A stretch of DNA of 64,000 nucleotides. Source: Blasia pusilla (Eukaryota). The DNA lies in assembly GCA_050084515.1 (NCBI GenBank), contig CM114271.1:32426001-32490000 (forward strand), written 5' to 3'. The number at the start of each line of letters is the position of its first letter. Within the stretch, counting starts at the first letter, position 1. Both the position numbers and the translations under genes were made by a program. Of this stretch, positions 7,210 to 64,000 are shown one piece after another. Below the pieces are notes generated by a model. It saw only the letters and a list, made by a program, of their open reading frames with translations, was not told the origin of the DNA and made no database searches.

Positions 7210-7316
7210 TGTCGTACGAATCCACATCGTCATACAACATACATCGCTGACATACCATACTCACATACATACATAACATAGATGAGAGCATCCACAAACA
7301 TAAGTGTACCACAACT
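7210..7316 (-). repeat. Repeat Y2 (107 bp), forming the 3' terminus of copy 1
   Basis: Direct repeat of 7685-7791. Ends ...TACGACA against host flank. Confidence 0.93.
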
Positions 7317-7682
7317 GAAATCCGTGGAAGACCTACTGTCATAAAACATGTATAGAATCACATACAATCGAGCCAAACCCACTCCACGATGGGAGAATCT
7401 AGGTCGAAGCTTGCGGGAAACACCATAGCCAAGAGCTCTACTCACTACCAAGGCTAACTCCCAACGCAACAGGCTCAACTCAAAGAACTAACTGTTCTTT
7501 GAGTGCACTCCACCTTATATCCTCCAACCTAAGAGCGGGCCTAATGGAAAAGTCACCCCCAATTGAGTAACCCCCAACCCTATGTATGAAACTGCATCTC
7601 TACCTAGCCACTACGGTCCTACATAAGGTATGGCCTCTACTAGCACACTATACTCTACGACATAATCCGTATGGTCATGACA
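7316..7682 (-). repeat. Second copy X2 (367 bp) of the terminal repeat, sandwiched between Y1 and Y2
   Basis: Near-identical to 14989-15356. In element sense it is preceded by Y1 plus GC and followed by Y2. Confidence 0.95.
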
Positions 7683-7684
7683 GC

Positions 7685-7791
7685 TGTCGTGCGAATCCGA
7701 TTCGTCATACAACATACATCGCTGACATACCATACTCACATACATACATAACATAGACGAGAGCATCCACAAACATAAGTGTACCACAACT
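7685..7791 (-). repeat. Repeat Y1 (107 bp), immediately after the PPT
   Basis: Direct repeat of 7210-7316 (5 mismatches by eye). In element sense it ends ...GCACGACA, followed by GC and then the TGTCATG start of X2. Confidence 0.93.
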
Positions 7792-7800
7792 CGCCCCCCT
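7792..7800 (-). promoter_or_regulatory. Polypurine-tract-like plus-strand primer (AGGGGGGCG)
   Basis: G-rich run directly abutting the start of Y1 and downstream of the pol stop codon. No comparable tract abuts X2. Confidence 0.65.
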
Positions 7801-7963
7801 AACTCGCGGTTAGGTCCCTCTAACTCCCATGTAGCCCTATACATCTACTACATGCTATACACCTTCGTGGGTGCACGAATCAGAAGGCGGGGTGCTAGGT
7901 TGCCCCATCGTTAGTCGTACATCTGTAATCCATATCATGCAAAGATCAAGTCATCTACCTCTC

Positions 7964-8545
7964 CTAAGTACATTGAGGACAAACCCACCTTCCAGTAGGA
8001 ACAACATCCATACGTGGAGTCAAACACATCATGTGCCAACCCCTAGAACACCGATCACACACCAACATACGGGTTGCGTTACCAGCAGACCCACACAACA
8101 TGCACCTCAAGCAAGCACGTATCATGGCTAAGCTTGGGTTAACAATACCATCCATATTTGGAAGATGATATGGTGCACAATTACGCACATGGTCCTTCCA
8201 AACAACTCCATCACGATCCTCCAACATGAGAACTCCAGAAGTTAACACCTCGTGCACTCGTAAAATAGTGCGGCCTACTGTCACATCCAACATTGTCGGT
8301 GCAATCTGCTGCAAATAGACATAGTCCCCTACATGGAACCTAGGAATCGATGGTCGATAACCTCCACCCTGAATGGTTGCATACCGCAACGTATCCCTGT
8401 GTTGAGCAATGGCAAGATTCTCAAAGGCTGTTGGCATAACTCTCCGAAAGAGCTCTCCCCGTTGAGAACACACTCTCATCCACATCTGTGAGTGATCAAG
8501 GTTCACCACCTCACTAGACTCCCGACGAATTGCTGCGAGCAAGTG
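7964..8545 (-). pseudogene. Integrase C-terminal region (SH3-like segment) ending in a PHD finger
   Basis: FHVGDYVYL...HVRNCAPY resembles an integrase CTD. It is followed by the C4-H-C3 pattern CMLC...CDRC...WHMMC...WVCPQC at 8104-7967. The first part matches copy 2 at about 63810-64000. Confidence 0.85.
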
Positions 8546-9404
8546 ACTCCCAAACCACCTGGATAGATCACATGACCCAAGTACTCAACATCCTCATGGA
8601 AGAACTTACACTTTCCTGGATGCAAACGTAGACCATGAGCTTTCAACCGCTCAAACACCATCTGCAAATGTATCTGATGCTCCTCCACCGTGTTACTGAA
8701 CACCAAGATATCATCAATGTAACACGGAACAAAATCCAACCCTGCTAGGATCCTATCCATAACTCTCTAAAACTCGGCAGGTGCATTCTTCAACCCAAAG
8801 GGTAAGAATTTCCACTGGTACAAACAATCCTTGCCATGAGAGTTGACACCCCAAAATGTTGTCTTGGCCTGTCACTCTCCCGAATCGGAAATTGATGGTA
8901 TCCTGCCCGAAGATCCAAAGTACTGAAAATCTTTGCATGTCCCATCACATCAAAGATCTCCTCAGGTGTAGGCATGGCATACCTATTGGCCTTGGTTTGC
9001 CGATTGAGAGGACGGTAATCTCCACACATCTGCCTATCCGTGTAGTTGCCATGCATATCCTTTTTAGCAGGTATGACAATGGCTGATGCATACTCTCCAT
9101 GTGACAACTCCACTAATCCAGCCTCCAAAAGGTCCAACGTCCTACTCTGAATCAGGTCCCTCTCCATATCACTATATCGGTAGGGACGACGGAAGATTGG
9201 CGTATCACTAGCCAAATCAATCCGTATACTGGGTCCAATCAGAGAACCCAACTCCTTCATGCTAAAGGCAAAACAACTCCTATAAGCACGTAGGAATTGT
9301 GTCAAGCGTCGTTTCTCACCTCTCGTAAGCTTGGGCCCAAGTAATGGCTCCCAAGTCTCCTCCACTGGCACACTAGAGGGAGAGGATGATGCCATTGGTC
9401 GCAC
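8546..9404 (-). pseudogene. Reverse transcriptase of copy 1 (C-terminally deleted)
   Basis: PIFRRPYRYS, CGDYRPLN, FSTLDLRAGYHQ, PFGLKNAPAEF, YIDDILVFS, KCKFF..VEYLGH: Ty3/gypsy RT motifs with one frameshift. Confidence 0.95.
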
Positions 9405-9639
9405 ATAACCCCCTCACAAGATGGTACACCCTTAGCTACACCATCATCTCGAGCAAATAACTCCTCCACCAAAGCATGAGCAACCAACTCCACATGCCCA
9501 CCATTACATCCCATTTACTCCAAGGATGCAAAATACTACTCTCCTCGCCCCACCGATGTCTCTCTTGCCCCGGTAGCCATCAAGCTCATTACAAGGGGTG
9601 GAAGACCCACAGACATAGTCCGAAGTTGATTTGCTCGCC

Positions 9640-10591
9640 ATACCAAGACTCAAAATCCAAGTCAAACAATTCAGGTCCATGGCCTGACCCAACACATGAC
9701 GTCGTGAAGCCTCAGAAATGGAAGCAACCGATGTCACACCAGTAGCAAATCCCATCACACGCTCTCTCTCATTAGCGTTAGGCTCCACCAACTGTCGCAC
9801 ATGAGAATCCCATACAAGCCCGGGACCACCTTCCTTGTATGCATGTGACGAGGGAAAAGTCACAAATGTGGGTAGTGCCATCCTAGGCTGGCCCACACGG
9901 TTCAACACTGCCATGGGTGACCCATCAATAACCCTCACCACCTGAGAAAGTCGCCCAATATCCAAGTTACTATCCACTGTAAGGCAAGGATCCCGCTGCA
10001 CTGCATCATATGCTCAGCGTAGAACCTCCCTAGGCAACAAGTTTGTCCACCACAAGCGTGGACGATGTGCACGCGAGGCAACTCGCGCTGCATCCAACAA
10101 CACCGCTGGTCCAATCCAAGACCGCATCTCATGAACACTCGCCATCATCCGGGTCCGAGCGTCACCCAACAATGAACATTCTCCAGAATGTAAGCTAGAG
10201 CACGTGTCTGATGAACCTGAAGATTTTGTAACACCCGTAACATCTCCCAAAACAATCGAGACCTAGGGTCGTGAAATCCCTCACCACGACCAGCACGTGT
10301 ATGACCCTGACATGGCCATCCAGAAATCACCAAATCCACAGGACCAACCCTCTCAAGGTCCTGCGCCCCCAACAATGCAATGTGTGACGGCAAAGCACGC
10401 TGGTACCCACGAATAGCTAATGACGGCAATAACTCAGGATATCTCCGCATCAACTGACCAATATGTCGGGATGAGACTCTCTGGGCCGTCTCATCTCGCT
10501 CCATATACACGTATCTCCGCACAGGAATACCGGCCTACAACACTGCAGCCAAACCACTGCTAATCCCACCAAAGAGATCTAACACACAAAT
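9640..10591 (-). pseudogene. DNMT3-like cytosine-5 DNA methyltransferase domain within pol (copy 1)
   Basis: Motif I VLDLFGGISSG, motif II ERD, motif IV VDLVISGWPCQG (PCQ 10315-10307), motif VI YILENV (ENV 10183-10175), motif VIII AHRPRLWWTNL, motifs IX-X ERERVMGF...RRHVLGQAMDL. The motif order is unpermuted. Two stops and one 1-bp frameshift are present. Confidence 0.92.
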
Positions 10592-10989
10592 GCCCTCCGG
10601 CGGATACTGCCATACAATGGGTGTAGTATCCAAAGGAGATAACCCAACTGGACCAGAAGTAGGAGTCCGTCGTGGGGCCTCCTCTTCCTCGTGAGGTATA
10701 AAAGCCTCACACCAAGCCTCCTGCACTAGGCCATCAGCCTCCTGCCATAGTGCACCACCTGAACTCCAAAGTGGCACATCCAATGATGAGGATGCCACTG
10801 CTGCAAAAATAGGGACCTCCTCATGCACAGGAGAATCCATAGCAAAAACATTACCCTCCAAAAAGTCTCCTGGCCAAGTGACTACTCCACTAAAACCAAC
10901 CAGAGATGCTAACACTGTTGGGGAAGACCCTCCTGGTCGAGCCCCATAAATAAATCTCACAGGAACTTGGCTCATACGTCCATCCCCGG

Positions 10990-11333
10990 ACTATCAACCA
11001 AGTCTATAAGACAGTCCAGTAATCCATCTGAAAACCCATCGGGTACAATAATGCTCCTCCAACTAGTACATCATACGACTCGGCTGATGTGACTACCGCA
11101 GATACTCCCAACCGAGAACTATCAGTCGCATGATCTGGTCTCAACTGTACAGAAAACTTCTCCCCTGTCATGAATTGAGACCTATCATTGGCTCCTCCAA
11201 GTGATGTTTGAATCTGGAATGGGCAAGGCTCAAGCTCTCACCTCCGAATACCCAAACCAATACATGCCGCCTTTCCCAACATCAAAGGTTGGGCACTAGA
11301 GTCTAACAAGACTCTATCTGGTCTATACACCTG
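10990..11333 (-). pseudogene. Aspartic protease domain of copy 1
   Basis: Reading through the TGA at 11334-11336 gives RVLLDSSAQPLMLG...YDVLVGG (retropepsin D(S/T)G-like site, here DSS, plus the DVLVG flap motif). It has an 8-bp deletion relative to copy 2. Confidence 0.8.
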
Positions 11334-13433
11334 TCATGTAGGACTCACCAATCGGAATATCCCACTCCGGTTGTCCAACATACATACACCAGGTGTAAGC
11401 CTCTCACGATCAATGGCTGGCCGGGCTAGTAATGCAACCATCTTCGCCGCTGTTGCCTGCCAAGTAGCACTGGTACTCAATGCTACACCTAACATAGAGG
11501 GTCGCTCCACCGCAACACCCTCATCCACCTCAGCACGTGTAGTAGTAACACCCCCACGTCCACACAACGTGGCTGCTAGCTGAAATACATGAGCTAAGTC
11601 AACTCCTAAAGCCATCAGCTCCATGGCCGAAAATAATGGGGATCCCAACACTGAAGTTGCCATCCGCAATACTGCATTGGATGTTGCATCCGTGTCTACT
11701 ACACGCGATGTAGATGCCTCAGTCCCCACTGTCGGCTCAATAGGCTGCATAGGAACCATGGATGGAGTCCTAAGCACCCCTGACAACAAGAATGAATGGG
11801 GAAGCCTAGCCTGCCTCCCAGCCTCATCCCTCTGTGGGTCCAACTCCATAGTAGCACCACGTGGCTCTGACGCTCGAGTGGCTCCTCTCGTAACTGCAGC
11901 CGATGCCTCAACCTGTGCTGCACTCGCCATATAAGAGAGATCATCCCCTCCATAAGAGGTGGAAGCCCCTGCTCCCAAACCTGATCTATGTTGGATACCA
12001 GCCATAGTAGCCAACTTCTGCTCCAACTGCTCAATCATGGCAGCCATAGATGACTCTGTCGTAGTGGTAGGGGTAGCCACCGTAGGCTCTCCAACCACCG
12101 GTCCACCTCTACCACCTCTACCACCTCGGCCTCTCGGAGCTACTCCACCGCGGCCGCGGCCTGATCTCAACTCTGGATGAAGATCAAAGCAACGCTCTAG
12201 AGGATGACCTGGTCTCCCGCAATGATCACACTGAGTTGGGGCCGACTGAGGCCCATCCTCCAAAGTCCGTCTCCCATCCTCTTGGGGACAAAACTTCCTA
12301 ACATGATCACCTCCACATGTCCAACATGATTGTCCTTGCTGCAGGGCAGCAAATGAAGGCAATGGTCTCTGCGCAAGTGTCCCTCTTGGACCAGACTGAG
12401 GTCGTGTGTACCCCCCACGACTCCCACTACTACTACCACCACCACTACTACGAGATTGTGAGGTGGGTTGCTGAACATGAGCACTAGTAGTTGTATCCCT
12501 ACTGAATGCGGATGTCACCACTCTCTCCTTCACCATGTTAAGCTCAATCTTCTCAGATAGAGCAAACACATGGGTCAATGTGGGTGAATCATCACTCATA
12601 AGAGTAGCATCACGTACCTTGCGGCGCAACTCTCTGTCCAAGATCCCATACCAAAATTGGACTGCCTAAGCCTCAGTCACACCCTGGGTAACTAAAATCA
12701 AGCGTCGCATACGAGTGTATGCCTCACGAAGACTCTCACCAGTCTTTCGCTCAAATTCTTGAAGACTCTTCAACTTCTCTGTCTTCACTCCCTGATAGTT
12801 TCTCTTCAACCTCTTGAAGAACTCTGCAACCGGGCTAAACGATGGTGGGGCACTAGTACCCCCACAGGTACCCCTACTGGTACCTCCACTAGTACCCCCA
12901 CTGGTACTCCGGCTCGTACTCGTACCACTCAACGTCGGGCTGGCTGGCATAGTAGGAGCACTACTACCAATACCACCATGGGTGATAGACACATAGCTTG
13001 GAGACCAATATTGTCTCCACGCCTCAATCTCAGCAACATGGTCCTTCCTAAACTCATGGTAATCATCCAAGTGTTGAAACAACCCCTTCCAAGCCAAGAA
13101 GGGTGTAAACAACGTGGCGTTCCGCAACATCTGCATATCACACCACGTATCAAACTCCTGCATGAAGTCCTCCAACTCAATGGTGCCCACTACACCCGAG
13201 TATCGTCGTGGGCCCTTCATGGCCCCATATATCCCGTCCATGTCCCAAATCAATGGAGCTGCAACACTCGATAACAACGTAGAAGACTCGGTGTTTGGAA
13301 CACCCTCGTCCTCCTCTTCATCAACCGTCGGAAGTGGAAAAGGTAGCCGATACCTAAATCCACTCCGTGTGAAAGCACCACTGTCCGCGCCACGGTCCCC
13401 AACCTGACCACCTGACAGCTCCGTGATGACCAA
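11334..13433 (-). pseudogene. gag: gag of copy 1 (capsid-like region, two CCHC-type zinc knuckles, RGG tract)
   Basis: ORFs 12666-13433 and 11334-12641 share one frame split by a TAG. Motifs CWTCGGDHVRKFC, CDHCGRPGHPLERC and RGRGG repeats are present. The first in-frame ATG is at 13241. Confidence 0.85.
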
Positions 13434-14977
13434 CGCCGATGCTGCACCACCACCAAATTATCACCACTAAGTAACCAAGTGACGTCGATGTCGCTATACT
13501 ATTCTTGCTCTACTAGCTATGGGTGTAGGCAACCTAACCTATCATCACCACAAGAAGCCTCCCACAATCTATTGGTCATCACTCCAACCTCATTACCGGT
13601 AGCACACAGGAATAACACTACTCTGGAAATCAGCGTCAACCTTAACAATGGGCCCGCAAGCAAGAAGCAACGATGGAGGGGGTCCAAACACAAGAAGTCC
13701 AACGAAAACCCTCCAATCGCAAATGGAAATCAAGATAACACAATCCACAAACGTGGCGCCCCCTGAATCCACAAAACCCACCACACAATTCTAACGCAAT
13801 AGCTACTCCGCCGCGGGTCGATGACGTGCTAGTCGAACTCGCACCACCTGAAAATATCACCTAAATGGAGAGGCTACACCGTACTATGCGCTAGAGGTCC
13901 ATCAACCAAAAACCTGAGATGCATAAAATGCCTAACACATCTCCGAACAGCACCAAATGAGCTACACCCGTGTGTACACTGGCATAGTTAAGAACTCAGC
14001 AGTTAAGCGTCTTCCAGGCAGAATAGCCCAAAGATGGGTGACCAGTTATGCAACACTCAAATCACAAATCCTGCAAAAACTGCCTCACGCCAAGCAAGCA
14101 AGCAAGCTTGCTTGCTTGCTCCTTGCTCCTTGCTCCGCCTGCAAAAGCTTGCTTGCTCCTTGCTCCTTGCTCCTTGCTCCGCCTCTCACGCCCACTCGCC
14201 ACCAGTTGCCTCGAAACGCCGAGAAATGCTCGAGACATGCCCCGTTCGCCCCATTCGCCATGCTTCGCTATGGAGAAAGGCCCAACCAGGGCGCCCCCAA
14301 CGAGATAGGCGTCTCCAACAATGAACGAGTCACCAACCAACCAGCCCCTCCGATCCGCTGTCCACCATAGCCAGATCTTGAACTAGTCCGCAAAATTTCG
14401 ATCAGTAATTACTTCACAAATCCTAGACCAAAATTGAATCTATTTCAACCAAAATTCAATTGACCACCATAGCTATCTCTCCACAAAAAATCAGCTACAA
14501 CCAAGCTCTGCACTCCGAGCTAAAAATCAGACAAACTTGTTGTCCATACTCCTCCAAAATCGCAAATCCGATAGCGCTTCCGCCTAGTTTCATGCACGCA
14601 GAAATCCACAACGCTCCACACACCCAAGCAGATAGCGTCACATGAGATCACAATACAAGTAGCAACAGGAACCTCTCACCCGATCTGGAGGAACTTCAAG
14701 AGAGCTTCCGCACTCCAAGCTCTCCACATCAGAAAACTCTCCACATCAGAAAATCGTCGAACACGAACCAGAATCTTCAATACTTGATAACTTCCAACTC
14801 CCTTGAAGAAATCTGGCGATCTAAAGCGCGTTGGAAATCTCTCAGCAAGGCGCTTCTTTCCCAACCAACCACGCACCAGATTCACACCTCCAACATAGGC
14901 CACAAGCCACAAACATCCACGGCTGACTACACAATCAGCCCTAACCAGATCCTAGTGATCCACAATCGATCTACGTC

Positions 14978-14989
14978 AGTTCTTTGAGT
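14978..14989 (-). promoter_or_regulatory. Primer-binding site complementary to the predicted RNA 5' end (self-priming type)
   Basis: ACTCAAAGAACT overlaps the last base of X1. It is the exact reverse complement of AGTTCTTTGAGT at 15162-15151, which starts 30 nt after TATAAG. It lacks the TGG start of tRNA-type sites. Confidence 0.8.
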
Positions 14990-15356
14990 GAAATCCGTGA
15001 AAGACCTACTGTCATAAAACATGTATAGAATCACATACAATCGAGCCAAACCCACTCCACGATGGGAGAATCTAGGTCGAAGCTTGCGGGAAACACCATA
15101 GCCAAGAGCTCTACTCACTACCAAGGCTAACTCCCAACGCAACAGGCTCAACTCAAAGAACTAACTGTTCTTTGAGTGCACTCCACCTTATATCCTCCAA
15201 CCCAAGAGCGGGCCCTAATGGAAAAGTCACCCCCAACTGAGTAACCCCCAACCCTATGTATGAAACTGCATCTCTACCTAGCCACTACGGTCCTACGTAA
15301 GGTATGGCCTCTACTAGCACACTATACTCTACGACATAATCCGTATGGTCATGACA
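14989..15356 (-). repeat. 5' terminal repeat X1 (368 bp, TG...CA) of copy 1
   Basis: Direct repeat of 7316-7682; by eye 4 substitutions and one 1-bp indel. Contains TATAAG at 15192-15187. Confidence 0.95.
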
Positions 15357-15653
15357 GGTTTGCATCACTCTAACAATGGCATGTGAGCATGAAATAAATA
15401 GCCCATAGGAGAATAAGGCCTCGGAGGCTGTAGACCCTAGAATGCAGGTCGCCTCTTTATCAGTGGCTGTTGTGAGCAAGATCCTAATTGTCTAAAGGAA
15501 AAAAAAGAATATGGGAGCGTTCAAAAAATTGAAATGTCATCATTACACGACCCCACAACCTAAGAGTCGTCGTAAAGAATCAGCACAAAGAACTCAAAGG
15601 ACCTAAAATCTAAACCTCCCACAAAGCTAAAATGACTCGTGTCAATTTCCAAC

Positions 15654-28272: not shown

Positions 28273-28796
28273 ATCCACTTTATTATAATAACAAGCCTCA
28301 ACGAGGACAAAATAAGGTAATGACAACTCAAAAGAGGGAGAATTAAAAAAATGCAAAAAGAAACTAGGAACTAGCCAACACAAACACCCACTCAACGCGT
28401 TACACAATTGATCACATGAAACAAATTTGACAAGAGTATTTGTGGTTGGTCAAACATGAACGGACGATGAGGGCGAGCGACCGCCACCGTTTCTACACGA
28501 CGTTTGAATGCCAAAGCTTGTGCACGTTATAAGGCCAATGAGATGCATTGCCGAAAATAAGTAGTGACTACACACAAAGAGAAGGATTATGAGAAGGGGC
28601 AAGGTCATGATTCTCAAGGGAATGGTGAGCATATGATTTGAGGAAAGTATTAAAAGATACATGTAAATGACCGAATACTTCCACTGTGAAAAGAGTAAAT
28701 CCATGGTTTGCATGTCTCACAGCATAACTGATTTCCTTGATTCTTGTTGTTGCTTCGGCCACTGAACCTTTAGTATGTGTGGCACGATACACCAAG
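28273..28796 (-). mobile_element. 5'-truncated copy of the CRE-like non-LTR element (RLE C-terminus and 3' UTR)
   Basis: Translation VYRATHTKGSVAEATTRIKEISYAVRHANHGFTLFTVEVFGHLHVSF parallels 50977-51537. It shares the 3' end AATAAAGTGGAT with the copy at 50850. Confidence 0.85.
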
Positions 28797-50849: not shown

Positions 50850-53800
50850 ATCCACTTTATTATAAAAGAAACCTCATAAGAGGACAAAGAAAGGTAATAA
50901 CAACTCAAAAGAGGAGTCAAAAAATGCATACAAGAATGCAAAAAGAAAATGGCAACAAGCCAACGTAGACACCGGCTCAACCGGCTACAAGATTGATAGT
51001 CTGAAACAAGTCTGACAAGAACACGAGTGGTTGGTCAGACGTGAATGGACGACGACGCGAGCGACCCCCCACCACCTCCGCACGACCTATCAATGCAAAG
51101 GCTTGTACACGTTGTAAGGCCACTGAGATGCATTGCCGAAAATAAGTAGTAACTACCGAGAGAGAAGGACTACGGGAAGGGGCAAGGTGATGGTTCTCGA
51201 GGGAGTGGTGAGCACATGTTTTCAGGAAAGTATCAAAAGACACATGTAAATGACCGAATACTTCCACTACAAAAGGAATAAATCCATCAGTCGCATGTCT
51301 CACAGAATAACTTAACTCCTTGATTCTTCCTGCAGCTTCGGCCGCCAAACCTTTGGTATGTGCGGCTCGACACACCAAGACAAAACGTGTTGGATCAACA
51401 ACCACCACATCACCTAGTGTCCGGAATCCACCTCGAGACATAACAAGATCCACTCTCCGACAAGAGGTTGCTTGTGTGGTTGAAGGTAGGACGTGGAGTT
51501 GCTCTTGCCCAAGGATGTATCCTGCAGTACGAGCCACCGATGCTACCGCCTCTCTTATGACGTCATGTGTGGCCGTTCGTTCTCCACCATGTGCACATCA
51601 GAGAATATGGATACCCTTGGCATCAATGGGATCCCCGCATACACAATTCGGCACACCTAAGAGAGAAGGATGGGGAAGTCCACGACGTAACCGCAAAGCT
51701 GTCAAGAATATACTTCGAGGAAGACGAAATGGAAGAATAAGAGGACTTTCGATAAGCCACGCCCCCGCTCTAGTACGCACACATGAACGTAGACGAGCTC
51801 GATTAGCGTCAGAGGATGCCTTGGAGAGAATGCTGGAAAAGTTTATTTTATGCATATTCTCGGAGATATGCTCTTGAAGTCGATCAAGCCCTTTTGTAGT
51901 CAATTGACTGAAAGGGGATATAATTGCTTGTGTAGCAAGAGGAAGAAGAGCTCCTGTAGATCTCAATTGTTGTTGAAATAACAAGTCTCCCTCCTCTACA
52001 TGGGCGATATGATCCATCAAGATAGGTGTATCTCCTTGGAGAAACCTTGAAGCCATAATTGGTGCTACCAATGCCCAACTCCCCAAAAAGTTTGCGGGAG
52101 CAGATGCGACTATGGAGGACAGTCCCACCCCTCCAAAAGAAATAGGCAAGATAGCTTGTCGTGAAGCAAAGACACCATCCTCTCCCTCAAAGGTATTTGG
52201 GCCAAGAAGTTGACCAAAAGTTGCCAAGATAGAAGCATCAAAAGAGGCCAACCGATGTAAGAACCTTGAAGTGGGAGGACAAGTGCGAAGAAGGTAGGAA
52301 GGACGTCGTAGAAAACATTTTGAGAGAATCCCATAAGCCACTTGGGGATCCCCTAGATGAGGTAACAAATGAAGTCATTCCACGTCTTTCAAAAGGGCCT
52401 CATCCAAGAACTTTGAGATATAGTCGATGAAGCCAATTGGGACCCCAAGAACTCTAACCCCTTCAATGTAGATGGGAAAATCAAGAGTAGGTGGGGTGAA
52501 TATTGAGGGAAGGCATGAAGGAGACCATACTCCACATTTACTAGGTTGGACTTTAAGGTTTAAGAAAGAGAGTTGCTCCACGGAATGGGTATAAGCAGGA
52601 ACCACTTCAGAAGGAGGACCTATAATGTGATTGTCATCAGCAATAGAAGGGAAAAGACAAGATGGAAATGCTTGCGCTGATGCTCGAAGGGCACGAAAAT
52701 GGGCAATGGCAAAGAGTGGGCCCCCCATGGGATCATCTTGACGTGTGCCACCAGTCGATTGTAGAATACTATATTCCCTAGAAGTAGCATGATGGGAATA
52801 GATAATGGGGATATCATAGGCATAGAAGGAGCCAACAAATGGAGTGAGGCTCGCAAGTTGTCCTCCTGCACAACGTAACTCCTCAAAGATGGCCGCACGA
52901 GAAACTGAATTGAATGCGCTAGCCATATCAACTTGAATCGCTACCCAATCTGGATGAATATCAAGAGTGGAGAAAATCCCATGCACCACAGCCTCACAAG
53001 GAGTTGCCACTCCAAATTGATGAGGAAATAAGTGGGCACTAAAGTGAGGACGAAATTGCAAGCATAGGGATCGACTAACCAAGCGGTATAAAACCTCTCC
53101 AATAGCCAAGGGGCGCACACCTGAAGGAGGCTTATCCATAGCCAACAAACGACAAGCCCCTAAGAGTCTAGAGATAGAGAATGGAAGACGACCTGTCGCC
53201 ATATGTGCACACACCTTATATAGAGAGACAAAGCCACTTGCTGAATCTGCTGGGATAAAGCAATCGCGGAGATGCTCAAAAACCATCCCTGATAGCCCGC
53301 TTGCTGATAAGCGAGGAGTATGCAGAAAAGCCCTTGAGAAAACCTCCAATTCAAGCTCCAAGTCAAGGTCCGTTGTATAGTCTTCCACAAAAGATGGAGC
53401 ATCGCCACTTGAAGGAGGATGAAGAGCTTCTAAGAGAGCCACTATTTCCGCACTTGGAACTGCCGGAGAAAGAGGACCCAATGCTCGAGTTGCACGTGAA
53501 AACTCACCAACCTGCCCCAAAAGTAGACTTCGTCGAAGGCGTTGTTTTATTGAAGGCCTCCCATGATTGGCATGTTGAGTGGGATGAGCCGCAGCTTAGG
53601 CCTCTGCTCAAAGTACATGCTCATTCTGAAGATTCTCCCAATCCCCAAACATAAAGCGTTGAATACGTGTGGAGGTTTCACGATGACCGTTGCACCACCC
53701 CTTGGAGGGAGGACTAAAACCCATTGTGGGAAGAGTAATAGGAGATACCAAGAATTTATATTTGTGGGGTCAGGCGGTAACCTTTCTAATGGTAAAAGCA

Positions 53801-55130
53801 AAGCTTGTTGGGTGATGGGGCGAAGAGCAATAGGAATGCGAGTGTAGAGTCTAGGACGAGGAAGACCTAGGTGGAAAGAGCGAAGTAGATCAATTTGGCT
53901 TAACCAAGTCCAAGAAATTGTTGTGGGGAGTGCAGTAGGAGGTGGTATCGGGTTAGGGTTTGAAGGCCCATGCATGGATCGACAGTACCGCTGATGTCTT
54001 TTGATCCCATTAGGAGCAAACTCCTTACCACAAGGTATGCAACGAACCTTTGATACAAATGGAGAAGTAGAAGGGTTACAAGGAGAGGAGGTAGGAGGTG
54101 CAAGAGGTGGTGATGGCCGACGATGAGGGGGTAAGTAAGTTGGGGAAGGAGGAGGAGGAAGAGGGGAGATTCAGGTAGAATAGATGGGAGTTGGAAGCAA
54201 GGGCCTAGATGAGATATGTGGGGATGGCAAAGTAGATGGATTCGGTAATAATGGTAATAATGGATTAGGCTCAAAAAAACGAGGCGAAGAAGGGAGAAGA
54301 GGAGAATCCGGAAGAAATGTAGCGAGCATAATGGGTGTATCAACATTTGGAGGAAAATGGCGAGATCTACGATGAGGAGGTGAACCAGAGGGAGAGGTTA
54401 CGGTTGTAGGAGGGCATGTAAAACCATATAAGCGAGTAGATGGAGAATCCAACTCCATCTCTGATGACATAGAAGTAAAGGTAGGCAAGTCATCGAAGAC
54501 ACGAAGAGACATATGAAACGTGGTTTGGAGAAAGCATGAGGATAACAAGCAAAGAAAAAGTAGTGGAATCCGTCCAAAAGACATTTAGATGGAGAGATGA
54601 AGATTAGGAAGTACCGAATTTATGATTGAAAGTTACTATAAGAAAAATATAAAAATAAATTGAAAAGGAAAAATGATCTTTATGGTATCGGAAGAGGTGG
54701 CTCAAGAATATGAATTTCTAATGTCCTTAAGGAGATGGCAAACGTATGTAGGGGCAATATAGTAAGGTAAGGAGTTGGAAGAGCAAGGAAGACTTTTGGG
54801 AGGATTTGACCTAAACAAACCCGTACACAAAAATAGGCGCCTACAGAGAAGGAAGAAAAATTAGAAAACCTTTTTGATATCAAAAGAACGAACTTGTCAA
54901 GAGGATCGAAACAAGCCCAAACACGTCTAAAACCGACATTCCAGAAGAAAGTTATGAAAGAAGTTGGAAACACCAAAAAAGAGGATGTTAGGAGTAAGTG
55001 CGCCACCCACCAATGACCGCTATGAGGGAATGAGTTCGTAATGTTGGGCCCAGCCCGTATCAAAAGATCCAGAAAAGCAAGAGGAATCCCTTAAATCGAT
55101 GGTAAACCGGTATCACTCTATAAGGAGAGC
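50850..55130 (-). mobile_element. CRE-like non-LTR retrotransposon with restriction-like endonuclease, near full length, decayed
   Basis: Single-ORF layout: N-terminal zinc finger, RT, CCHC knuckle, then PD-(D/E)xK-like nuclease. The 3' UTR has AATAAA. The 5' boundary is approximate. Confidence 0.88.
50977..54584 (-). pseudogene. ZnF-RT-CCHC-RLE polyprotein of the CRE-like element
   Basis: Zinc finger CIPCGKEFAPNGIKRHQRYC (54041-53982). RT motifs GVRPLAIGE, QFGVA, VDMASAFNSVSR, GTRQDDPMG, SIADD. Knuckle CVCG...HIL*C. RLE segments RTATHD, RRVDLV...GDV..VDP, KELSY, FIPFVVEVFG. The stretch 53520-50977 is one frame broken by two TGA stops. Confidence 0.88.
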
Positions 55131-55435: not shown

Positions 55436-55804
55436 TGTCATGACCATACGGATTATGTCGTAGAGTATGGTGTGCTGGTAGAGGCCATTCCTTATGTAGG
55501 ACCGAAGTGGCTTGGTAGAGATGCGGTTCCATACATAGGGTTGGGGGTTACTCACTTGGGGGTGACTTTCCCAGTAGGGCCCGCTCTTAGGTTGGAGGAT
55601 ATAAGGTGGCTTGCCCTCAAAGAACAGTCAGTTCTTTGAGTTGAGCTCATATGCGTTGGGAGTTAGCCTTGGTAGTGAGTAGAGCTCTTGGCTATGGTGT
55701 TTCCCGCAAGCTTCGACCTAGATTCTCCCATCGTGGAGTGGGTTTGGCTCGATTGTATGTGATTGTAAACGTGTTTTATGACAGAAGGTCTTTCATGCAT
55801 TTCA
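55436..55804 (+). repeat. 5' terminal repeat X1 of copy 2 (369 bp, TG...CA)
   Basis: Homologous to 14989-15356. TATAAG at 55600-55605. No Y sequence lies upstream. Confidence 0.92.
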
Positions 55805-55816
55805 CTCAAAGAACTG
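55804..55816 (+). promoter_or_regulatory. Self-priming type primer-binding site of copy 2
   Basis: ACTCAAAGAACTG is the reverse complement of CAGTTCTTTGAGT at 55629-55641. The A at 55630 is 30 nt after the TATA start. Confidence 0.8.
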
Positions 55817-57188: not shown

Positions 57189-59691
57189 TTGGTCATCACG
57201 GAGCTGTCGGGTGGTTTGGTTGGGGACCGTGGTGCGGACAGTGGTGGTTTCACACGGAGTGGATTTAGGTATCGGCTACCTTTTCCACTTCCGACGGTTG
57301 ATGAAGAGGAGGATCAGGGTGTTCCAAACACCGAGTCTTCTACGTTGTTATCGAGTGTTGCAGCTCCATTGATTTGGGACATGGACGGTGGATATGGGGC
57401 CATGAAGGGCCCACTAACGATACTCGGTGCAAGTGGGCACCATTGAGTTGGAGGACTTCATGCAGGAGTTTGATACGTGGTGTGATATGCAGATGTTGCG
57501 GAACGCCACGTTGTTTACACCCTTCTTGGCTTGGAAGGGGTTGTTTCAGCACTTGGAAGGACCACCCATGGATGATTACCATGAGTTTAGGAAGGACCAT
57601 GTTGCTGAGATTGAGGCATGGAGACAATATTGGTCTCCAGGCTATGTGTCTATCACCCATGGTGGTATTGGTAGTAGTGCTCCTACTATGTCAGCCAGCC
57701 CGACGTTGAGTGGTACGAGTACGAGCCGGAGTGGGGTACCAGTGGAGGTACTAGTGGGGTACTAGTGGAGGTACTAGTGCCCCACCATCGCTCGATCCGT
57801 TGCGAGTTCTTCAAGAGGTTGAAGAAGAACTATCAGGGAGTGAAGACGGAGAATTTGAGGAATCTTCAGGACTTTGAGCGAAAGACTGGTGAGAGTCTTC
57901 GTGAGGCATACACTCGTATGCGACGCTTGATTTAAGTTACCCAGGGTGTGACTGAGGATCAGGCAGTCCAATTTTGGTACGGGATCTCGGACAGAGATTT
58001 GCGCCGTAGGGTACGTGATGCTACTCTTATGAGTGATGATTCACCCACATTGACCCATGTGTTTGCTTTATCTGAGAAGATTGAGCTTAACATGGTGAAG
58101 GAGAGAGTGGTGACATCCGCATTCAGTAGGGATACAACTACTACTTCTCGTGTTTAGCCGCCCACCTCACAGTCTCGTAGTAGTGGTGGTGGTAGTAGTA
58201 GTGGGAGTCGTGGGGGGTACACGCATTTCACTCAAAGAACTAGGTCACCTCAGTCAAGTCCTAGAGGGACATTTGTGCAGAGACCATTGCCTTCATTTTC
58301 TGCCCCGCAGCAAGGACAGTCATGTTGGACATGTGGAGGTGATCATGTTAGGAAGTTTTTTCCCCAAGAGGATGGGAGACGGACTTTGGAGGATGGGCCT
58401 CAGTCGGCCCCAACTCAGTGTGATCATTGCGGGAGACTAGGTCATCCACGAGAGCGTTGCTTTGATCTTCATCCAGAGTTGAGATCAGGCCGTGGCCGTG
58501 GTGGAGTAGCTCCGAGAGGCCGAGGTGGTAGAGGTGGTAGGGGTGGTAGAGGTGGACCAGTGGTTGGAGAGCCTACGGTGGCTACCCCTACCACTACGAC
58601 AGAGTCATCTATGGCTGCCAAGGATTGAGCGTTGGAGCAGAAGTTGGCTACTATGGTCGGTATCCAAAGATAGATCAGTTCAGGGAGCAGGGGCTTCCAC
58701 CTCTTATGGAGGGGATTATCTCTCTTATATGGCGAAAAGATAGGTTGAGGCATCACCAGCAGCGATTCTGAGAGGAGCCACTCGGCGTCGAGCCACGTGG
58801 TGCTACTTGTGGAGTTGGACCCACAGAGGGGTGAGGTGGGAGGCAAAGCTAGGCTTCCCGGTCATTCTTGTTGTCGGGGTGCTTAGGACTCCATCCATGG
58901 TTCCTACGCGAGCCTATTGAGCCGACAGATGGGGATCGAGGCATCGACATCGCGTGTAGTAGGCACGGATGCAAAGCATCCAATGCAAGATTGCGGATGG
59001 CAACCGGTGTTGGGATCCCCTTTGTTTTCGCCACGGAGTCGATGGCTTTAGGAGTTGACTTAGCTCATGTATTTTGATTAGCGACCACGTTGTGTGAACG
59101 TGGGGTATTATGCTACACGTGTTGAGGTGGATGAGGGTGTCGCGGTGGAGCGATCCTCTATGTCGGGAGTAGCATTGAGTACCAGTGCTACTTGGTGCAA
59201 AGCAGCGCGCGGCGAAGATGGATGCATTACCAGCCCGGCCAGCCATTGATCGTGAGAGGCTTACACTTGGTGTATGTATGTTGGACAACCGGAGTGGGAT
59301 CTTCCGATTGGTGAGTCCTACAGACAGGGTGTATAGACCAGATAGAGTCTTGTTAGACTCGGTGCCCAACCTTGATGTTGGGAAAGGCGGCATGTATTGG
59401 TTTGGGTATTCGGAGGTCGAGCTTGAGCCTTACCCATTCCAGATTCAAACATCACTTGGAGGAGCCAATGATAGGTCTCAATTCATGACACGGGAGAAGT
59501 TTTTTGTACAGTTGAGACCAGATCATGCGACTGATAGCTCCCGGTTGGGAGTATCTGCGGTAGTCACATCAGCCGAGTCGTATGATGTACTAGTTGGAGG
59601 AGCAATATTGTACCCGATGGATTTTCAGATGGATTACTGGACTGAGACAGCGTCTTATAGACCAGGTTGGCAGTCCGGGATGGACGTATGA
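57189..59691 (+). pseudogene. gag: gag and protease of copy 2 (frameshifted)
   Basis: Fragments ELEDFMQEFDTWCD, CWTCGGDH, CDHCGRLGHPRERC, RVLLDS and YDVLVGG match copy 1. Confidence 0.85.
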
Positions 59692-60074
59692 GCCAAGTTC
59701 TGTGAGATTTATTTCTGGGGCTCGACCAGAGGGTCTTCCCAACAAGTGTTAGCATCTGTGGCTGGTTTTAGTGGAGTAGTCACTTGGCCAGGAGACTTTT
59801 TGAGGGTAATGTTTGCAATGGATTCTCCTGCGCATGAGGAGGAAGAGGAGGTCCCTATTTTTGCAGCAAAGTGGCATCCTCATCGTTGGATGTGCCACTT
59901 TGGAGTTCAGCGGTGCACTACGGCAGAGGCGTCGCCTAGTGCGGGAGAGGCTTGGTGTCGTGTTATACCTCACGAGGAAGAGGAGGCCCGGGGTGGACTC
60001 CTACTTCTTGCCCCTGTTAGGTTATCCCCTTTGGATACTACACCCATTGTATGGCAAAGTATCCGCCGGAGGGC

Positions 60075-61030
60075 ATTTGTGTGTTAGATCTCTTTGGTGG
60101 GATTAGCACTTTGGTTTTTGGCGCGATGTTGTAGGCCGGTATTCGTGTGCGGAGATACGTGTATGTGGAGCGAGATGAGACGGCCGAGAGAGTCTCATCC
60201 CGACATATTGGTCGATTGATGCGGAGGTATCTGAGTTGTTGCCGCCATCAGCTATTCGTGGGTACCGGCATGCTTTACCATCACACATTGCATTTGTTGG
60301 GCGCAGGACCTTGAGAGGGTTGGTCCTGTGGATTTGATGATTCTTTGGATGGCCATGTCGGGTCATACACGTCTTTGGTCGGGTGAGGGATTACATGACC
60401 CTAGGTCTCGATTGTTTTGGGAGATGTTACGGGTGTTACGACATCTTCAGTTCATCAGCAGTGCTCTAGCTTACATTCGTGAGAATGTTCCATTGTTGGG
60501 TGACACTCGGACCCGGATGATGGCGAGTGTTCATGAGGTGCGCTCTTGGATTGGACCAGCGGTGTTGTTGGATGCAGCGCGAGTTGGCTCGCGTGCACAT
60601 CGTCCACGCTTGTGGTGGACAAACTTGTTGCCTAGGGAGGTTCTACGTCAAGCATATGATGCTGTGCAGCGGGATCCTCGCCTTACAGTGGATAGTATCT
60701 TGGATACTGGGCGACTTTCCCAAGTGGTGAGGGTTATGGATCGGTCACCCATGGCAGTGGTGAACCGTGTGGGCCAGCCTAGGATGGCACTACCCACATT
60801 TGTGAGTTTTCCCTCGTCACATGCCTACAGGGAAGGTGGTCCGGGGCTTGTATGGGATTCTCATGTACGACAGTTGGTGGAGCCTAATGCTGATGAGAGA
60901 GAGCGTGCGATGGGATTTGCTAATGGTGTGACAGCGGTTGCTTCTATTTCTGAGGCTTCACGACGTCATGTGTTGGGTGAGGCCATGGACCTGAATTGTT
61001 TGACTTGGATTTTGAGTCTTGGTATGGCCG
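60075..61030 (+). pseudogene. DNMT3-like methyltransferase domain of copy 2
   Basis: ICVLDLFGGIS from 60075, GWPC (PC 60353-60358), ENV 60481-60489, RAHRPRLWWTNL and ERERAMGF...RRHVLGEAMDL. Confidence 0.92.
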
Positions 61031-61267
61031 AGCAACGTCGACTTCGGACTATGTCTGTGGGTCTTCCACCCCTTGTAATGAGCTCGATGGCTTTGGGGCC
61101 CGGTAGAGGCATCGGCTGGGGGCGAGGAGAGTAGTATTTTGCATCCTTGGAGTAGATGGGATGTAATGGTTGGGCATGTGGAGTTGGTTGCTCATGCTGG
61201 TGGAGGAGTTATTTGCTCAGATGATGGTAAGGGTGTACCATCTTGTGAGGGGGTTGCGTAGCAGCCA

Positions 61268-64000
61268 ATGGCATCATCCTCTCCCTCTAGTGTGCCAGTG
61301 GAGGAGACTTGGGAGCCATTACTTGGGCCCAAGCTTACAGGAGGTGAGAAACGACGCTTGACACAGTTCCTACGTGCTCATAGGAGTTGTTTTGCCTTTA
61401 GCATGAAGGAGTTGGGTTCTCTGGTTGGACCCGGTATACGGATTGATTTGGCTAGTGATACGCCAATCTTCCGTCATCCCTACCGATATAGTGATATGGA
61501 GAGGGACTTGATTCAGAGTAGGACGTTGGACCTTTTGGAGGCTGGATGAGTGGAGTTGTCGCATGGAGAGTATGCATCAGCCACTGTCATGCCTGCTAAA
61601 AAAGATATGCATGGCGACTACACGGATAGGCGGATGTGTGGAGATTACCGTCCTCTCAATCGGCAAACCAAGGCCGATAGGTATGCCATGCCTACGCCTG
61701 AGGAGATCTTTGATGTGGTGGGACAGGCAAAGATTTTCAGTACTTTGGATCTTCGGGCAGGATACCATCAATTTCCGATTCAGGAGAGTGACAGGCCAAG
61801 ACAACATTTTGGGGTGTCAACTCTCATGGCAAGGATTGTTTGTACCAGTGGAAATTCTTACCCTTTGGGTTGAAGAATGCACCTGCCGAGTTTCAGAGAG
61901 TTATGGATAGGATCCTAGCAGGGTTGGATTTTGTTCCGTGTTACATTGATGATATCTTGGTGTTCAGTAACACGGTGGAGGAGCATCAGATACATTTGCA
62001 GATGGTGTTTGAGCGGTTGAAAGCTCATGGTCTACGTTTCCATCCCGGAAAGTGTAAGTTCTTCCATGAGGATGTTGAGTACTTGGGTCATGTGATCTAT
62101 CCAGGTGGTTTGGGAGTTCAGCAAGCAAAGGTGGAGGCTATTGCACTTATTCCGCGTCCGATAGATGTGAGTAGAGTTCGAGCATTCATGGGATTGGCGA
62201 ACTACTATTGGAGGTATGTGAAGGGATTTAGTGCTATGGCAAAGTCTTTGAACCAATTGCTGAAATCAGATCAAGAGTGGCACTGGGGAGATGATCAGGA
62301 GAGAGCTTTTGTGGAGCTTAAGGCCTAGTTGGTGGCGGCGCCTATCTTGAGGAGACCTATCGAGGGCGCCTATTTGAGTTACGATGATTGGAGTAGGTTG
62401 GGACTTGGAGCGGTGTTGACACAACATGATGATGAGCACATGGAGTTTGTGGTGGCCTATGCAAGTCGTTCGAATAATACAGCGGAGTCGCGCTATAGTT
62501 CATATGAGGGAGAGTGCTTGGCAGTAGTGTGGGTTGTGGCACACTTTAGGTGTTACTTGTTTGGCACACTGATTTACCCTTACCCTTGTTTGATCACCGG
62601 CCGCTCAAGTGGTTGATGGAGTCGGACAAGCTTACAGGGAAGCTTGCACGGTGGGCTCTTATCTTACAGGAGTATGACTTCCAAGTGGTACATAGACCTG
62701 GAGTTGCCAACCTTGATGGTGATGGCTTGAGTAGGAACCCATGTACTAGCCAAGAGGATACAACTGGGGCTAGATGGCATGGCGAGGTTGATGAGGAGAT
62801 GGTGCCAGGTTAGCATGCATCCGCCTTTTTATGTTGGTTAGGGGTGGACTCTAGTATGGAGGATCACATGATATCTTACTCTAGTCAGAGGGTAGATGGC
62901 CAGCCTTCAGATCCTAAGGTTGGAGATGGTGGTACGGATCAGCGTGATATTCATGATGATGCGTTGGTGTTGGAGTTCCTACGGACCAAAGAGGGTGCCA
63001 GGCATAGTGAGTGCCAAGGAGCGAGACCGTGTTCTTCAACGTGCTAAGAGGTATCGATTGGAGGGAACACATATTTCTCGCGTGTGGGAGGATGGTAGAG
63101 TACGAGTAGTGCCACATTTGGCTCAGAGAGAGCGCATTGTGCGACATGCCCATGAGGAGTTGGGACATTTTGGGGTAAAGCGTACGTATAGCTTACTCCT
63201 TGGCCAATATTGGTGGCGTGGCATGCATACTCAGGTGCAGCAGTTGGTGTCACGTTGTATGGTTTGTGACCGGGTGAGGGCATCATTCAATGCCCCTACA
63301 CCACAATTACACCCCTTGCCTATTATGGGGTTGGTTTACCATTGGAGTGTGGACTTTTGCGGGACCGTTACCGTTGGTCGCATGCGACATCATCGATATG
63401 TGTTGGTGATGGTGGAGCACTTCTCCAAGTGGATTGAGTTGGTGGCATTACCGGACAAGGCAAGTGAGGGAACGGCATATGCGTTTCTGGATAGAGTGCT
63501 TAGTCATTTTGGTGCACCAGCTGAAGTGCTGACCGACCCGGGGTATAGAGTTTGTGGTGAGTTTGGTCTTGTGTGACAAGGCGTTGATTGATCATCGGAC
63601 CACGTCTCGAGAGCATCCGAGGCGGATGGTTTGGCTGAGCGTGTGGTTCAGACGGTGAAGAGGGCATTGCACAAGTATGGCCTACAGAAGGGGCATCTTG
63701 GAGACTGGGATATTCAGTTGCCATGGTTAGCCATGGGGTATAGGTTCAGTCGCCAAGCATCCTTGGCTTCCTTCTCACCTTATTTTCTGTTATACGGCCG
63801 AGATCCAGACTTGCCAAAGAAAGCAATTGTCGGGAGTCTAGTGAGGTGGTGAACCTTAATGACCCAAAGATGTGGATGAGGGTGTGTTCTCAGCGGGCGG
63901 AGCTCTTTCGGAGAGTTATGCCAACAACCTTTGAGAATCTTGCCATTGCTCAACACAGGGATACGTTGCGGTATGCAACCATTCGGGGTGGAGGTTATCG
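61268..64000 (+). pseudogene. pol: RT, RNase H and DDE integrase of copy 2 (frameshifted, cut by the window end)
   Basis: RT YIDD. RNase H DWSRLGLGAVL...ECLAVVW...DHRPL...DGLSR. Integrase HHCC (HEELGH...CMVC), WSVDF, VLTD, AERVVQTVK, SPYFLLYGRDP. The order RT-RH-INT is that of Ty3/gypsy. Confidence 0.95.

Follow-up and report, generated by a model that had tools for sequence, protein, structure and literature searches.

A DNMT3-like cytosine methyltransferase domain in a Ty3/Gypsy retrotransposon family of bryophyte type

Introduction

Cytosine methylation is the main route of transposon silencing in plants. A transposon equipped with a de novo methyltransferase of its own reverses this usual picture, and the question is what such an enzyme would do for the element that carries it. 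The question is raised by a stretch of 64,000 nucleotides of Blasia pusilla DNA (GenBank assembly GCA_050084515.1, contig CM114271.1, forward-strand positions 32,426,001 to 32,490,000), below called the window, which contains two copies of a retrotransposon with long terminal repeats (LTRs). An initial annotation, made from the sequence alone, had placed a DNMT3-like DNA methyltransferase (DNMT) in the polyprotein of this element, between the protease and the reverse transcriptase (RT).

The explanation that we favour, and consider rather probable as a whole, is the following. A DNMT3-type domain of a Gypsy family would be made as the last part of the first open reading frame (ORF1), ahead of a stop codon that is occasionally read through. 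It would be packaged and would methylate the cDNA of the element before integration, and the PHD finger of the integrase would tether integration to chromatin.

Results and Discussion

The methyltransferase domain

Self-comparison of the window by BLAST shows that the element is present twice. Copy 1 (7316-15357) is on the minus strand; copy 2 begins at 55436 on the plus strand and runs off the window end. The element belongs to a family of Ty3/Gypsy LTR retrotransposons of bryophyte type. The order of its parts, as read from Pfam matches and from tblastn with database relatives, is LTR, leader, gag (CCHC), protease, DNMT, in-frame stop, RT, RNase H, integrase, PHD finger and LTR (Table 1).

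The segments which we take to be motifs I, IV, VI, VIII and IX-X of the C5 methyltransferases are all present in both copies, and they stand in N- to C-terminal order on the coding strand, unpermuted as the initial annotation had it. In Pfam, DNA_methylase (PF00145) matches the copy-1 frame 10145-10534 at 38.5 bits (cut-off 22; E 1.2e-9), which exceeds chance. The longest DNMT frame of copy 2 (299 amino acids, 60235-61134) had no match in Pfam at E 0.01.

Because the window pieces are short, intact natural relatives were used for classification. The best named relative among the matches listed is a protein of Marchantia polymorpha (P0001, 1278 amino acids), which is 73.6% identical to the copy-1 DNMT and 64.9% identical in the gag-protease part. 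Against the sequences of PDB, P0001 matches DNMT3A at E 1.7e-8, M.HaeIII at 1e-3 and DRM at 2.6e-3. A profile built from an alignment of eight element-borne DNMT domains (A1), in which the catalytic residues are invariant, matches DNMT3A at 1.3e-21, DNMT3C at 1.4e-20, DNMT3B at 8.6e-20, DRM at 5.2e-13, M.HhaI at 4.7e-8 and DNMT2 at 6e-6. The 299-residue frame of copy 2 finds DNMT3A/B/C in 19 of 20 PDB matches, all of them weak (best E 8.4e-4). In the protein database, fish DNMT3B comes next after the element clade, at about 1e-14 among the matches listed.

The AlphaFold model of the P0001 domain has a mean predicted local distance difference test score (pLDDT) of 84.4 and a predicted template modelling score (pTM) of 0.88. 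Foldseek comparison of this model with PDB gives only chains or complexes of DNMT3A/B/C among the matches listed (ranks 1-50), and the TM-score normalised to the target is 0.76-0.81 for DNMT3 catalytic-domain chains. The look-alikes in the ESM Atlas are generic DNA_methylase clusters only. Judged by sequence and predicted fold, the domain is closest to DNMT3A/B/C. The DNMT3-like, unpermuted character proposed in the initial annotation is thus supported by sequence, profile, predicted fold and motif order.

PWWP and ADD domains were sought by Pfam on P0001 and on another relative, P0007, and none were found. According to the available text of a 2025 survey (PMC12344493), such companion domains are absent from many DNMT3s, and therefore their lack is not decisive against a DNMT3 assignment.

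Selection

The DNMT domain is kept under purifying selection across the family. Comparison of the copy-1 DNMT with ten related loci gives ratios of nonsynonymous to synonymous substitution rates (dN/dS) of 0.18-0.26 at dS about 0.7; an eleventh locus gives 0.35 and a twelfth is saturated. Among the 253 pairs formed by 23 loci, the median dN/dS is 0.16 for the 22 pairs with dS >1, and closer pairs give 0.45-0.77. Since the DNMT shows dN/dS of 0.18-0.26 against distant copies, its capture does not appear to have been passive.

Family members and gene orders

An exhaustive profile search gives 16,178 cluster representatives at E <=1e-3, 2,860 at 1e-10 and 554 at 1e-30. The named relatives given below are those among the matches listed, restricted by length band, and figures taken from them are lower bounds. 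The gene order of the window is found in Marchantia polymorpha, M. paleacea, Riccia sorocarpa, Calypogeia fissa and three Sphagnum species. Among named organisms, the closest relatives of the element are in liverworts and Sphagnum mosses, in agreement with the land-plant-like genome assumed at the outset. The family had also been called multi-copy, and indeed there are two copies in the window and more than 20 gene models in Marchantia, and 174,305 contig pieces of a DNA run with the same species label align at >=90% likeness, which fits a highly repeated family.

A sister form is named from Haematococcus, Chlamydomonas eustigma, Chromochloris, Scenedesmus and Monoraphidium. In this green-algal form the DNMT lies between RNase H and integrase, in one long frame with a PHD finger at the end. 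The 372 domain proteins collected comprise 154 with the algal order, 54 with the bryophyte order (including one Sphagnum gene model that reads protease-DNMT-integrase) and 164 with the domain alone (including seven fish DNMT3B).

A quick maximum-likelihood tree of 103 domains was built, in which the bryophyte order is represented by 37 and the algal order by 61, with five fish DNMT3B as outgroup. Proteins with the domain alone and rows covering <290 profile positions were left out, and of the 140 algal rows a random 61 were kept. All rows of the algal order fall into one clade, with a support of 98 in the Shimodaira-Hasegawa-like approximate likelihood ratio test (SH-aLRT). In the bryophyte order 35 of the 37 rows form one clade (support 82), and the other two are unresolved at the base. 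As each order forms, or nearly forms, a clade of its own, one change of position would explain the two gene orders. Independent capture of similar genes may also have produced them.

The motifs of the two forms differ. In the algal order (e.g. P0036, P0037, P0042), motif IV reads ECQ instead of PCQ in 80 of 154 proteins, with the catalytic cysteine kept, and ENT or ENA are commoner than ENV in motif VI. The bryophyte-order proteins have PCQ in 39 of 54 cases and ENV in 44 of 54.

The ECQ variant is one of two observations that could suggest that in practice the domain does not act on DNA but methylates RNA (the genomic RNA or the primer tRNA, in the manner of DNMT2) or serves as a non-catalytic partner like DNMT3L. 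The other is that a DNMT of a LINE-type retrotransposon (LINE, long interspersed nuclear element) failed to methylate DNA in yeast, for which RNA was suggested as substrate in the available text of PMC5890265. However, the bryophyte form mostly retains PCQ and ENV, and in sequence and fold the domain is far nearer to DNMT3 than to DNMT2. We consider this alternative highly improbable.

The metagenome loci of the bryophyte order are nearly all decayed, whereas those of the algal order have open frames of 1100-3600 amino acids. The decayed loci (L001-L046) differ from each other mostly by transitions, about 7-13 to 1, compared with 1.7 to 1 for the window copies. This excess would fit deamination of methylated cytosines. 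Some metagenome loci contain many stops, for which hypermutation was considered and partly rejected, as the loci with 15-20 stops are gapped and many of these stops are out of frame. One family member (P0276) has the name 'DNA cytosine methyltransferase' in NCBI and is assigned there to a Candidatus Obscuribacterales bin; most likely this is eukaryotic transposon DNA binned with a bacterium.

The boundary of ORF1 and ORF2

In copy 2 the DNMT frame continues for about 55 codons and ends with a TAG followed by CAG CCA, and the RT carries on in the same frame. The conservation of this stop was considered in 40 sequences, namely the two window copies and the 38 metagenome loci with a match to the RT start among 80 loci fetched with A1. 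A stop stands at the same codon, 17 codons ahead of the RT alignment, in 33 of them (23 TAG, 10 TAA). In all 33 it is in frame with the RT and is directly followed by CAA or CAG. Wherever the DNMT frame is open (L006, L017, L033 and copy 2), the conserved stop is its terminator. Copy 1 is mutated at this site. Many ORF1 proteins in the databases, from Marchantia and from further contigs, end 66-124 residues past the DNMT domain.

Of the initial proposal, the place of the DNMT between protease and RT stands, and the element is of the Gypsy LTR type. A single continuous polyprotein probably does not: the DNMT closes ORF1, and a conserved in-frame stop parts it from the RT.

Leaky readthrough of this stop would yield the RT-RNaseH-integrase-PHD product. 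According to the available text of PMC3159437, tobamoviruses have UAG-CAR-YYA as their leaky-stop signal, and in yeast readthrough is stimulated by UAG-CAR-NBA. The full CAR-YYA pattern is matched by copy 2, L017 and L033. Within the set of 33 stops, two agree with it completely; the majority match CAR only, the context being CAA-CCC in 30 of 33.

Another possibility is that the stop is a true terminator, and that ORF2 is made by reinitiation, from a spliced or shorter RNA, or by products of different copies working together. The prevailing CAA-CCC context and the ten TAA stops would agree with it, and so would the RNA depth, which rises about five-fold from gag to the integrase end and could be explained by a shorter 3' RNA. 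However, a gradient of this kind is equally expected from 3'-biased libraries, and the TAA cases sit in decayed, transition-rich copies. A terminator also leaves aside the frame shared with the RT and the following CAR, both without exception in the 33, and the complete signal in three sequences. A true terminator is unlikely on these grounds, although it deserves to be taken seriously, and leaky readthrough is the reading retained below.

The PHD finger of the integrase

The PHD finger of copy 1 contains CDRCSRGWH at 8033-8059. Its sequence matches in PDB are KMT2C, DPF2/3, CHD4, ATXR5, KDM5A/B, PHF21A, UHRF1 and AIRE. Most of these PHD fingers bind the N-terminus of histone H3 with unmethylated K4 or R2. 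By analogy to chromovirus chromodomains, the integrase PHD finger may tether integration to chromatin in which H3 is unmethylated at K4.

A chromodomain at the integrase C-terminus was not found by Pfam; the PHD finger stands there instead. For one algal-order polyprotein (P0091), the precomputed Pfam list gives a chromodomain (PF00385) in addition to a PHD finger. The text of a reference survey of plant LTR elements (PMC6317226) does not contain the words 'PHD', 'methyltransferase' or 'Marchantia'.

Transcription

Raw reads of three RNA runs from one study, with the species label of the DNA run, were aligned to copy 1 at >=90% likeness, 6-12% of each run being scanned. Between 3037 and 3526 reads per run aligned, and all 30 bins of copy 1 were covered. 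Along the whole element, plus-strand first mates outnumber minus-strand ones by a factor of about 10-100. A plus-strand first mate usually points to RNA of the minus strand, the sense strand of copy 1. The depth is about 10-40 over gag, 40-60 over the DNMT and 90-200 over RT-integrase. On both sides of the deletion junction of copy 1 (8544/8546), the reads continue into other sequence. The family is transcribed in sense, full-length members included, since the reads span the whole element and run past the deletion junction.

Structure of the window copies

The coordinates of the features are given in Table 1.

Table 1. Features of the two element copies in the window (strand: +, plus; -, minus)
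Feature	Position	Strand	Basis
Copy 1 5' LTR, TG...CA	14989..15357	-	self-BLAST, local alignment
Copy 1 long leader, from 5' LTR to gag start	13242..14988	-	gag alignment to P0001 begins at 13241
Copy 1 gag, CCHC knuckle 12288-12326, in-frame stop 12666-12668	11580..13241	-	tblastn, P0001 residues 1-734, one frame
Copy 1 aspartic protease region, two in-frame stops	11027..11579	-	translation
Copy 1 protease-DNMT linker, entered via 8-base gap at ~11012	10601..11026	-	copy comparison, tblastn
Copy 1 DNMT3-like C5 cytosine methyltransferase domain, two stops and one frame change	9630..10600	-	Pfam PF00145, motifs, tblastn with P0001 residues 870-1201
Copy 1 motif I, LFGG	10565..10576	-	
Copy 1 motif IV, WPC	10310..10318	-	
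Copy 1 motif VI, ENV	10175..10183	-	
Copy 1 motif VIII, RAHRPR	10056..10073	-	
Copy 1 ERERVMGF	9747..9770	-	
Copy 1 LGQAMD	9675..9692	-	
Copy 1 ORF1 tail and degraded ORF1/ORF2 stop site	9414..9629	-	translation, sequence context
Copy 1 reverse transcriptase, N-terminal and middle parts	8545..9413	-	Pfam RVT_1 E 5.5e-16 and 1.2e-4; tblastn with P0007 residues 696-926
Copy 1 junction of ~1.7-kb deletion	8534..8546	-	copy 2 62117-63822 unmatched in copy 1
Copy 1 integrase C-terminal region and PHD finger (about 7967-8104), stop 7964-7966	7967..8533	-	Pfam PHD E 1e-10
Copy 1 3' LTR	7316..7683	-	self-BLAST, local alignment
Copy 2 5' LTR	55436..55804	+	likeness to copy-1 LTRs
Copy 2 gag and protease, several frames, many stops	57381..59690	+	tblastn; LLDS at 59350-59361
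Copy 2 DNMT3-like domain, motifs in three frames	60072..61083	+	tblastn, motif search
Copy 2 motif I	60090..60101	+	
Copy 2 motif IV	60350..60358	+	
Copy 2 motif VI	60481..60489	+	
Copy 2 motif VIII	60592..60609	+	
Copy 2 ERERAMGF	60895..60918	+	
Copy 2 LGEAMD	60973..60990	+	
Copy 2 in-frame TAG closing ORF1, then CAG CCA	61259..61261	+	full UAG-CAR-YYA match
Copy 2 reverse transcriptase and RNase H	61262..62616	+	Pfam RVT_1 E 3.8e-25, RT_RNaseH_2 E 1.3e-18
Copy 2 integrase, zinc-binding and core, continuing past window end	62896..64000	+	Pfam Integrase_H2C2 E 1.8e-16, rve E 3e-9

The direct LTRs of copy 1 (368-369 bp) are 98.6% identical, with four mismatches and one gap. They have TG...CA ends, reading TGTCATG...GGATTTCA in the local alignment. 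The 5' LTR of copy 2 also begins with TGTCATG and is 93% identical to them. No target-site duplication was found at the flanks of the copy-1 LTRs (AAACC and GTTGT); it may have been lost by mutation or recombination. The internal regions of the two copies are about 91% alike, with 348 substitutions, a transition/transversion ratio of 1.7 and some 70 short gaps.

From the 5' LTR to gag extends a leader of unusual length (about 1.7 kb in copy 1; 55805-57380 in copy 2), which contains low-complexity repeats. Copy 2 lacks 101 and 44 bases of the copy-1 leader. Some RNA reads skip 13438-14095 in the leader, with non-canonical ends.

The CCHC knuckle in the gag of copy 1 is CWTCGGDHVRKFC. The active site of its protease reads LLDSS and not DSG, compared with VLLDSGAQ in P0001. 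The Pfam family PF13650 is found upstream of the DNMT in the relatives P0046-P0048, and the gag and linker frames of the window had no matches in Pfam. The 8-bp deletion claimed earlier is real: copy 1 has an 8-base gap relative to copy 2 at about 11012, and it coincides with the frame change between protease and DNMT. Further frame changes of copy 1 are at about 10174 (one base, within the DNMT) and 9630-9637, and its DNMT has stops at 10535-10537 and 10014-10016. Copy 2 is worse preserved than copy 1, its motifs I, IV and VI being spread over three frames.

The first of these stops is common to both copies: a TAG stands right after motif I (10535-10537 and 60130-60132), a site at which CAA or CAG is present in 23 of 23 related loci. 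Either it was inherited from a progenitor whose DNMT was already defective, or it is a recurrent C-to-T change at a CAG site.

Relative to copy 1, most RNA reads are shorter by one base at 9450 and by two bases at 9471. The deletion of about 1.7 kb in copy 1 removed the RT C-terminus, RNase H and the N-terminus and core of the integrase; beyond it, copy 2 63822-64000 aligns with copy 1 8355-8534 in BLAST.

Some contigs of the DNA run join 7788 to 14989 and skip about 7200 bases, so that the last 100 or so internal bases are fused to the inner end of an LTR. They look like internally deleted derivatives of the family, with a short core between two LTRs. A LINE-like element (50977-54584, minus strand) adjoins the 5' LTR of copy 2, and its frame 52375-53595 matches RVT_1 at E 1.4e-8. 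The long frames beside it have no Pfam match; one of them is proline-rich with a Cys/His motif. When eight other long frames of the window were compared with Pfam, this LINE-like RT alone was found. Finally, a direct repeat of about 530 bp (28273-28796 and 50850-51379, 79.8% identity) overlaps the LINE-like region with its second copy.

Proposed function

In working members of the family, ORF1 (Gag-protease-DNMT) would be the main product, and occasional readthrough of the leaky UAG/UAA-CAR stop would extend it with RT-RNaseH-integrase-PHD. The DNMT would then be about as abundant as Gag and would be taken up into the particle. Inside the particle or in the pre-integration complex, it could methylate the new cDNA de novo, and copies would enter the genome already marked, with the integrase PHD finger tethering them to H3 tails unmethylated at K4. 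Candidate purposes of such pre-methylation are camouflage, protection of the cDNA and self-limitation. Self-methylation of the cDNA is the step that we infer only.

The enzyme might instead work on host chromatin, at the integration site, at host loci in trans, or as a methyltransferase exploited by the host. If the stop is leaky, the DNMT would be made in Gag-like excess, beyond the need of the particle; the family is transcribed; and effects on the host methylome and on insertion-site chromatin are raised in the discussion of PMC5890265, as far as its available text goes. The sequence gives nothing to separate this possibility from methylation of the cDNA. However, Pfam gives DNA_methylase only on ORF1 (P0001), with no nuclear-targeting or chromatin-reading domain, and the PHD finger is on the integrase and not on the DNMT. 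Action on host chromatin is unlikely, slightly more so than a true terminator at the end of ORF1.

Several observations weigh against a packaged DNMT3-type enzyme that methylates cDNA. Both window copies are dead pseudogene relics, neither of them able to encode the enzyme. Their common stop lies 29 codons into the domain, so that a sub-lineage at least may have spread without a working DNMT. Compared with each other on a nucleotide alignment, the two copies have a DNMT dN/dS of 0.70 (bootstrap 0.41-1.19), indistinguishable from neutral; the values are 0.36 (0.14-1.08) for RT and 0.48 (0.33-0.69) for gag. Copy 1 itself contributes little, if anything, to the RNA, which comes from other members: 88-96 reads per run are >=99% like copy 1, and most are at 90-99%. 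The prevailing context of the ORF1 stop falls short of the full signal, and the reading preference of the PHD finger is taken over from its look-alikes. As to the class of the enzyme, the 129-residue piece of copy 1 (motifs IV-VI) taken alone matches M.HaeIII (1.7e-4) above DNMT3A (5.8e-3) and is non-discriminating, and with fish DNMT3B as the only outgroup the tree does not separate nesting inside DNMT3 from a sister position.

The dead copies bear most directly on passive capture, by which a host DNMT3 fragment would have been picked up once and carried on with no role in the life cycle of the element. Two broken DNMTs with an early stop in common, and a dN/dS between them whose interval includes 1, are what such a history could leave. 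However, the dN/dS between the window copies is dominated by decay after they died, and the long-range values are 0.16-0.26. The domain is present in 554 cluster representatives at E <=1e-30 and is better conserved than gag-protease, and the catalytic cysteine, ENV/ENT and RxR are kept in liverwort, moss and green-algal members. Ratios near 1 together with loss of PC and ENV had been named beforehand as signs of passive capture, and absence of the domain from most members as a further ground for refuting the proposal. The former combination occurs only in dead copies, with the lineage at about 0.2, and the domain is present throughout the family. Passive capture is very unlikely.

On the preferred explanation of cDNA pre-methylation, a wider picture may be drawn, which is speculative and, taken in all its parts, doubtful. 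A single old Gypsy lineage would run through green algae, mosses and liverworts, carrying a DNMT3 writer together with a reader of H3 tails. In bryophytes the writer would have moved to the end of Gag-protease, ahead of a leaky stop, and would be packaged like Gag, so that the cDNA arrives methylated. Since the family is still transcribed, the element-borne DNMT3 could then be a real and so far unrecognised source of de novo methylation in bryophyte genomes.

Elements of this kind are now placed in land-plant-like genomes (liverworts and Sphagnum) and widely in green algae, in hundreds of sequence clusters. Testable points that arise from the conserved stop and the two gene orders are the amount of the enzyme, its packaging, and the methylation state of new copies at birth. 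Natural intact ORF1 copies are present in the tractable model Marchantia polymorpha, in which the benefit of the DNMT to the element is directly testable. For annotation, it follows that many bryophyte database entries named 'DNA (cytosine-5)-methyltransferase' are transposon genes.

Comparison with known systems

Among cellular enzymes, DNMT3A/3B/3C are the best match in sequence and fold, with unpermuted motifs and a target-normalised TM-score of about 0.8. However, the identity is about 20-26%, and the element domain is embedded in a Gag-protease frame, with no PWWP or ADD on ORF1. Plant DRM2 belongs to the second-best family of the profile search, as expected for the DNMT3/DRM group. The motifs of DRM are permuted, whereas the element has the order I-IV-VI-VIII-IX-X, and the alignment is confined to profile positions 5-140 and to the C-terminal part of DRM.

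The stop resembles the type I leaky stops of tobamoviruses and the gag-pol readthrough of gammaretroviruses, where, in the available text of PMC3159437, an in-frame UAG followed by CAR likewise lies between an abundant upstream product and the polymerase. The differences are that most family members have CAA-CCC and that the upstream product also holds a protease and a methyltransferase. Chromoviruses also have a histone-reader module at the integrase C-terminus, presumably steering integration, but there it is a chromodomain and here a PHD finger.

Retrotransposons with a DNMT were cited in the initial annotation from dinoflagellates and Klebsormidium, and correctly so. The available text of de Mendoza et al. 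2018 (PMC5890265) describes them in Symbiodinium, together with KnitGypsy-Dnmt3 in Klebsormidium nitens; a DIRS-borne DNMT3 methylated CG de novo in yeast, and self-methylation of the cDNA was proposed. SymbioDIRS-Dnmt3 and SymbioLINE-Dnmt of Symbiodinium are likewise DNMT-encoding retrotransposons, the DIRS type being DNMT3-like, but they belong to other classes (with tyrosine recombinase, or LINE) and to another eukaryotic lineage. KnitGypsy-Dnmt3 shares with the window family the Gypsy type, the unpermuted DNMT3-type domain in the coding region, a streptophyte host, intronless copies, conserved key residues and purifying selection (Ka/Ks <0.2 published, 0.16-0.26 here). The published element has DIRS-like repeats (legend to Fig. 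4c), whereas the window element has plain direct LTRs with TG...CA ends; in addition, the window family has its DNMT closing ORF1 before the conserved stop, and an integrase ending in a PHD finger. The length-banded protein searches gave no Klebsormidium protein among the matches listed, and the available text of the 2018 paper mentions neither Marchantia nor PHD.

The EpiLTRs of Cymbomonas and Euglena, as described in the available text of a 2026 preprint (10.64898/2026.05.21.726589), are also LTR elements with a DNMT and a chromatin reader. However, their DNMT is sister to DNMT4 and lies at the 3' end of pol, and they have an adenine methyltransferase and a chromodomain in addition. In their available texts, this preprint and the 2025 survey (PMC12344493) refer to streptophyte retrotransposon DNMT3 only by citing the 2018 work. 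In a literature search, with subscription journals and supplements outside its scope, Gypsy elements with a DNMT were not found described for liverworts, mosses or chlorophytes. What is new relative to the published elements is the bryophyte-type hosts with an algal sister form, the plain LTRs, the DNMT at the end of ORF1 before a conserved stop that is probably leaky, and the PHD finger on the integrase.

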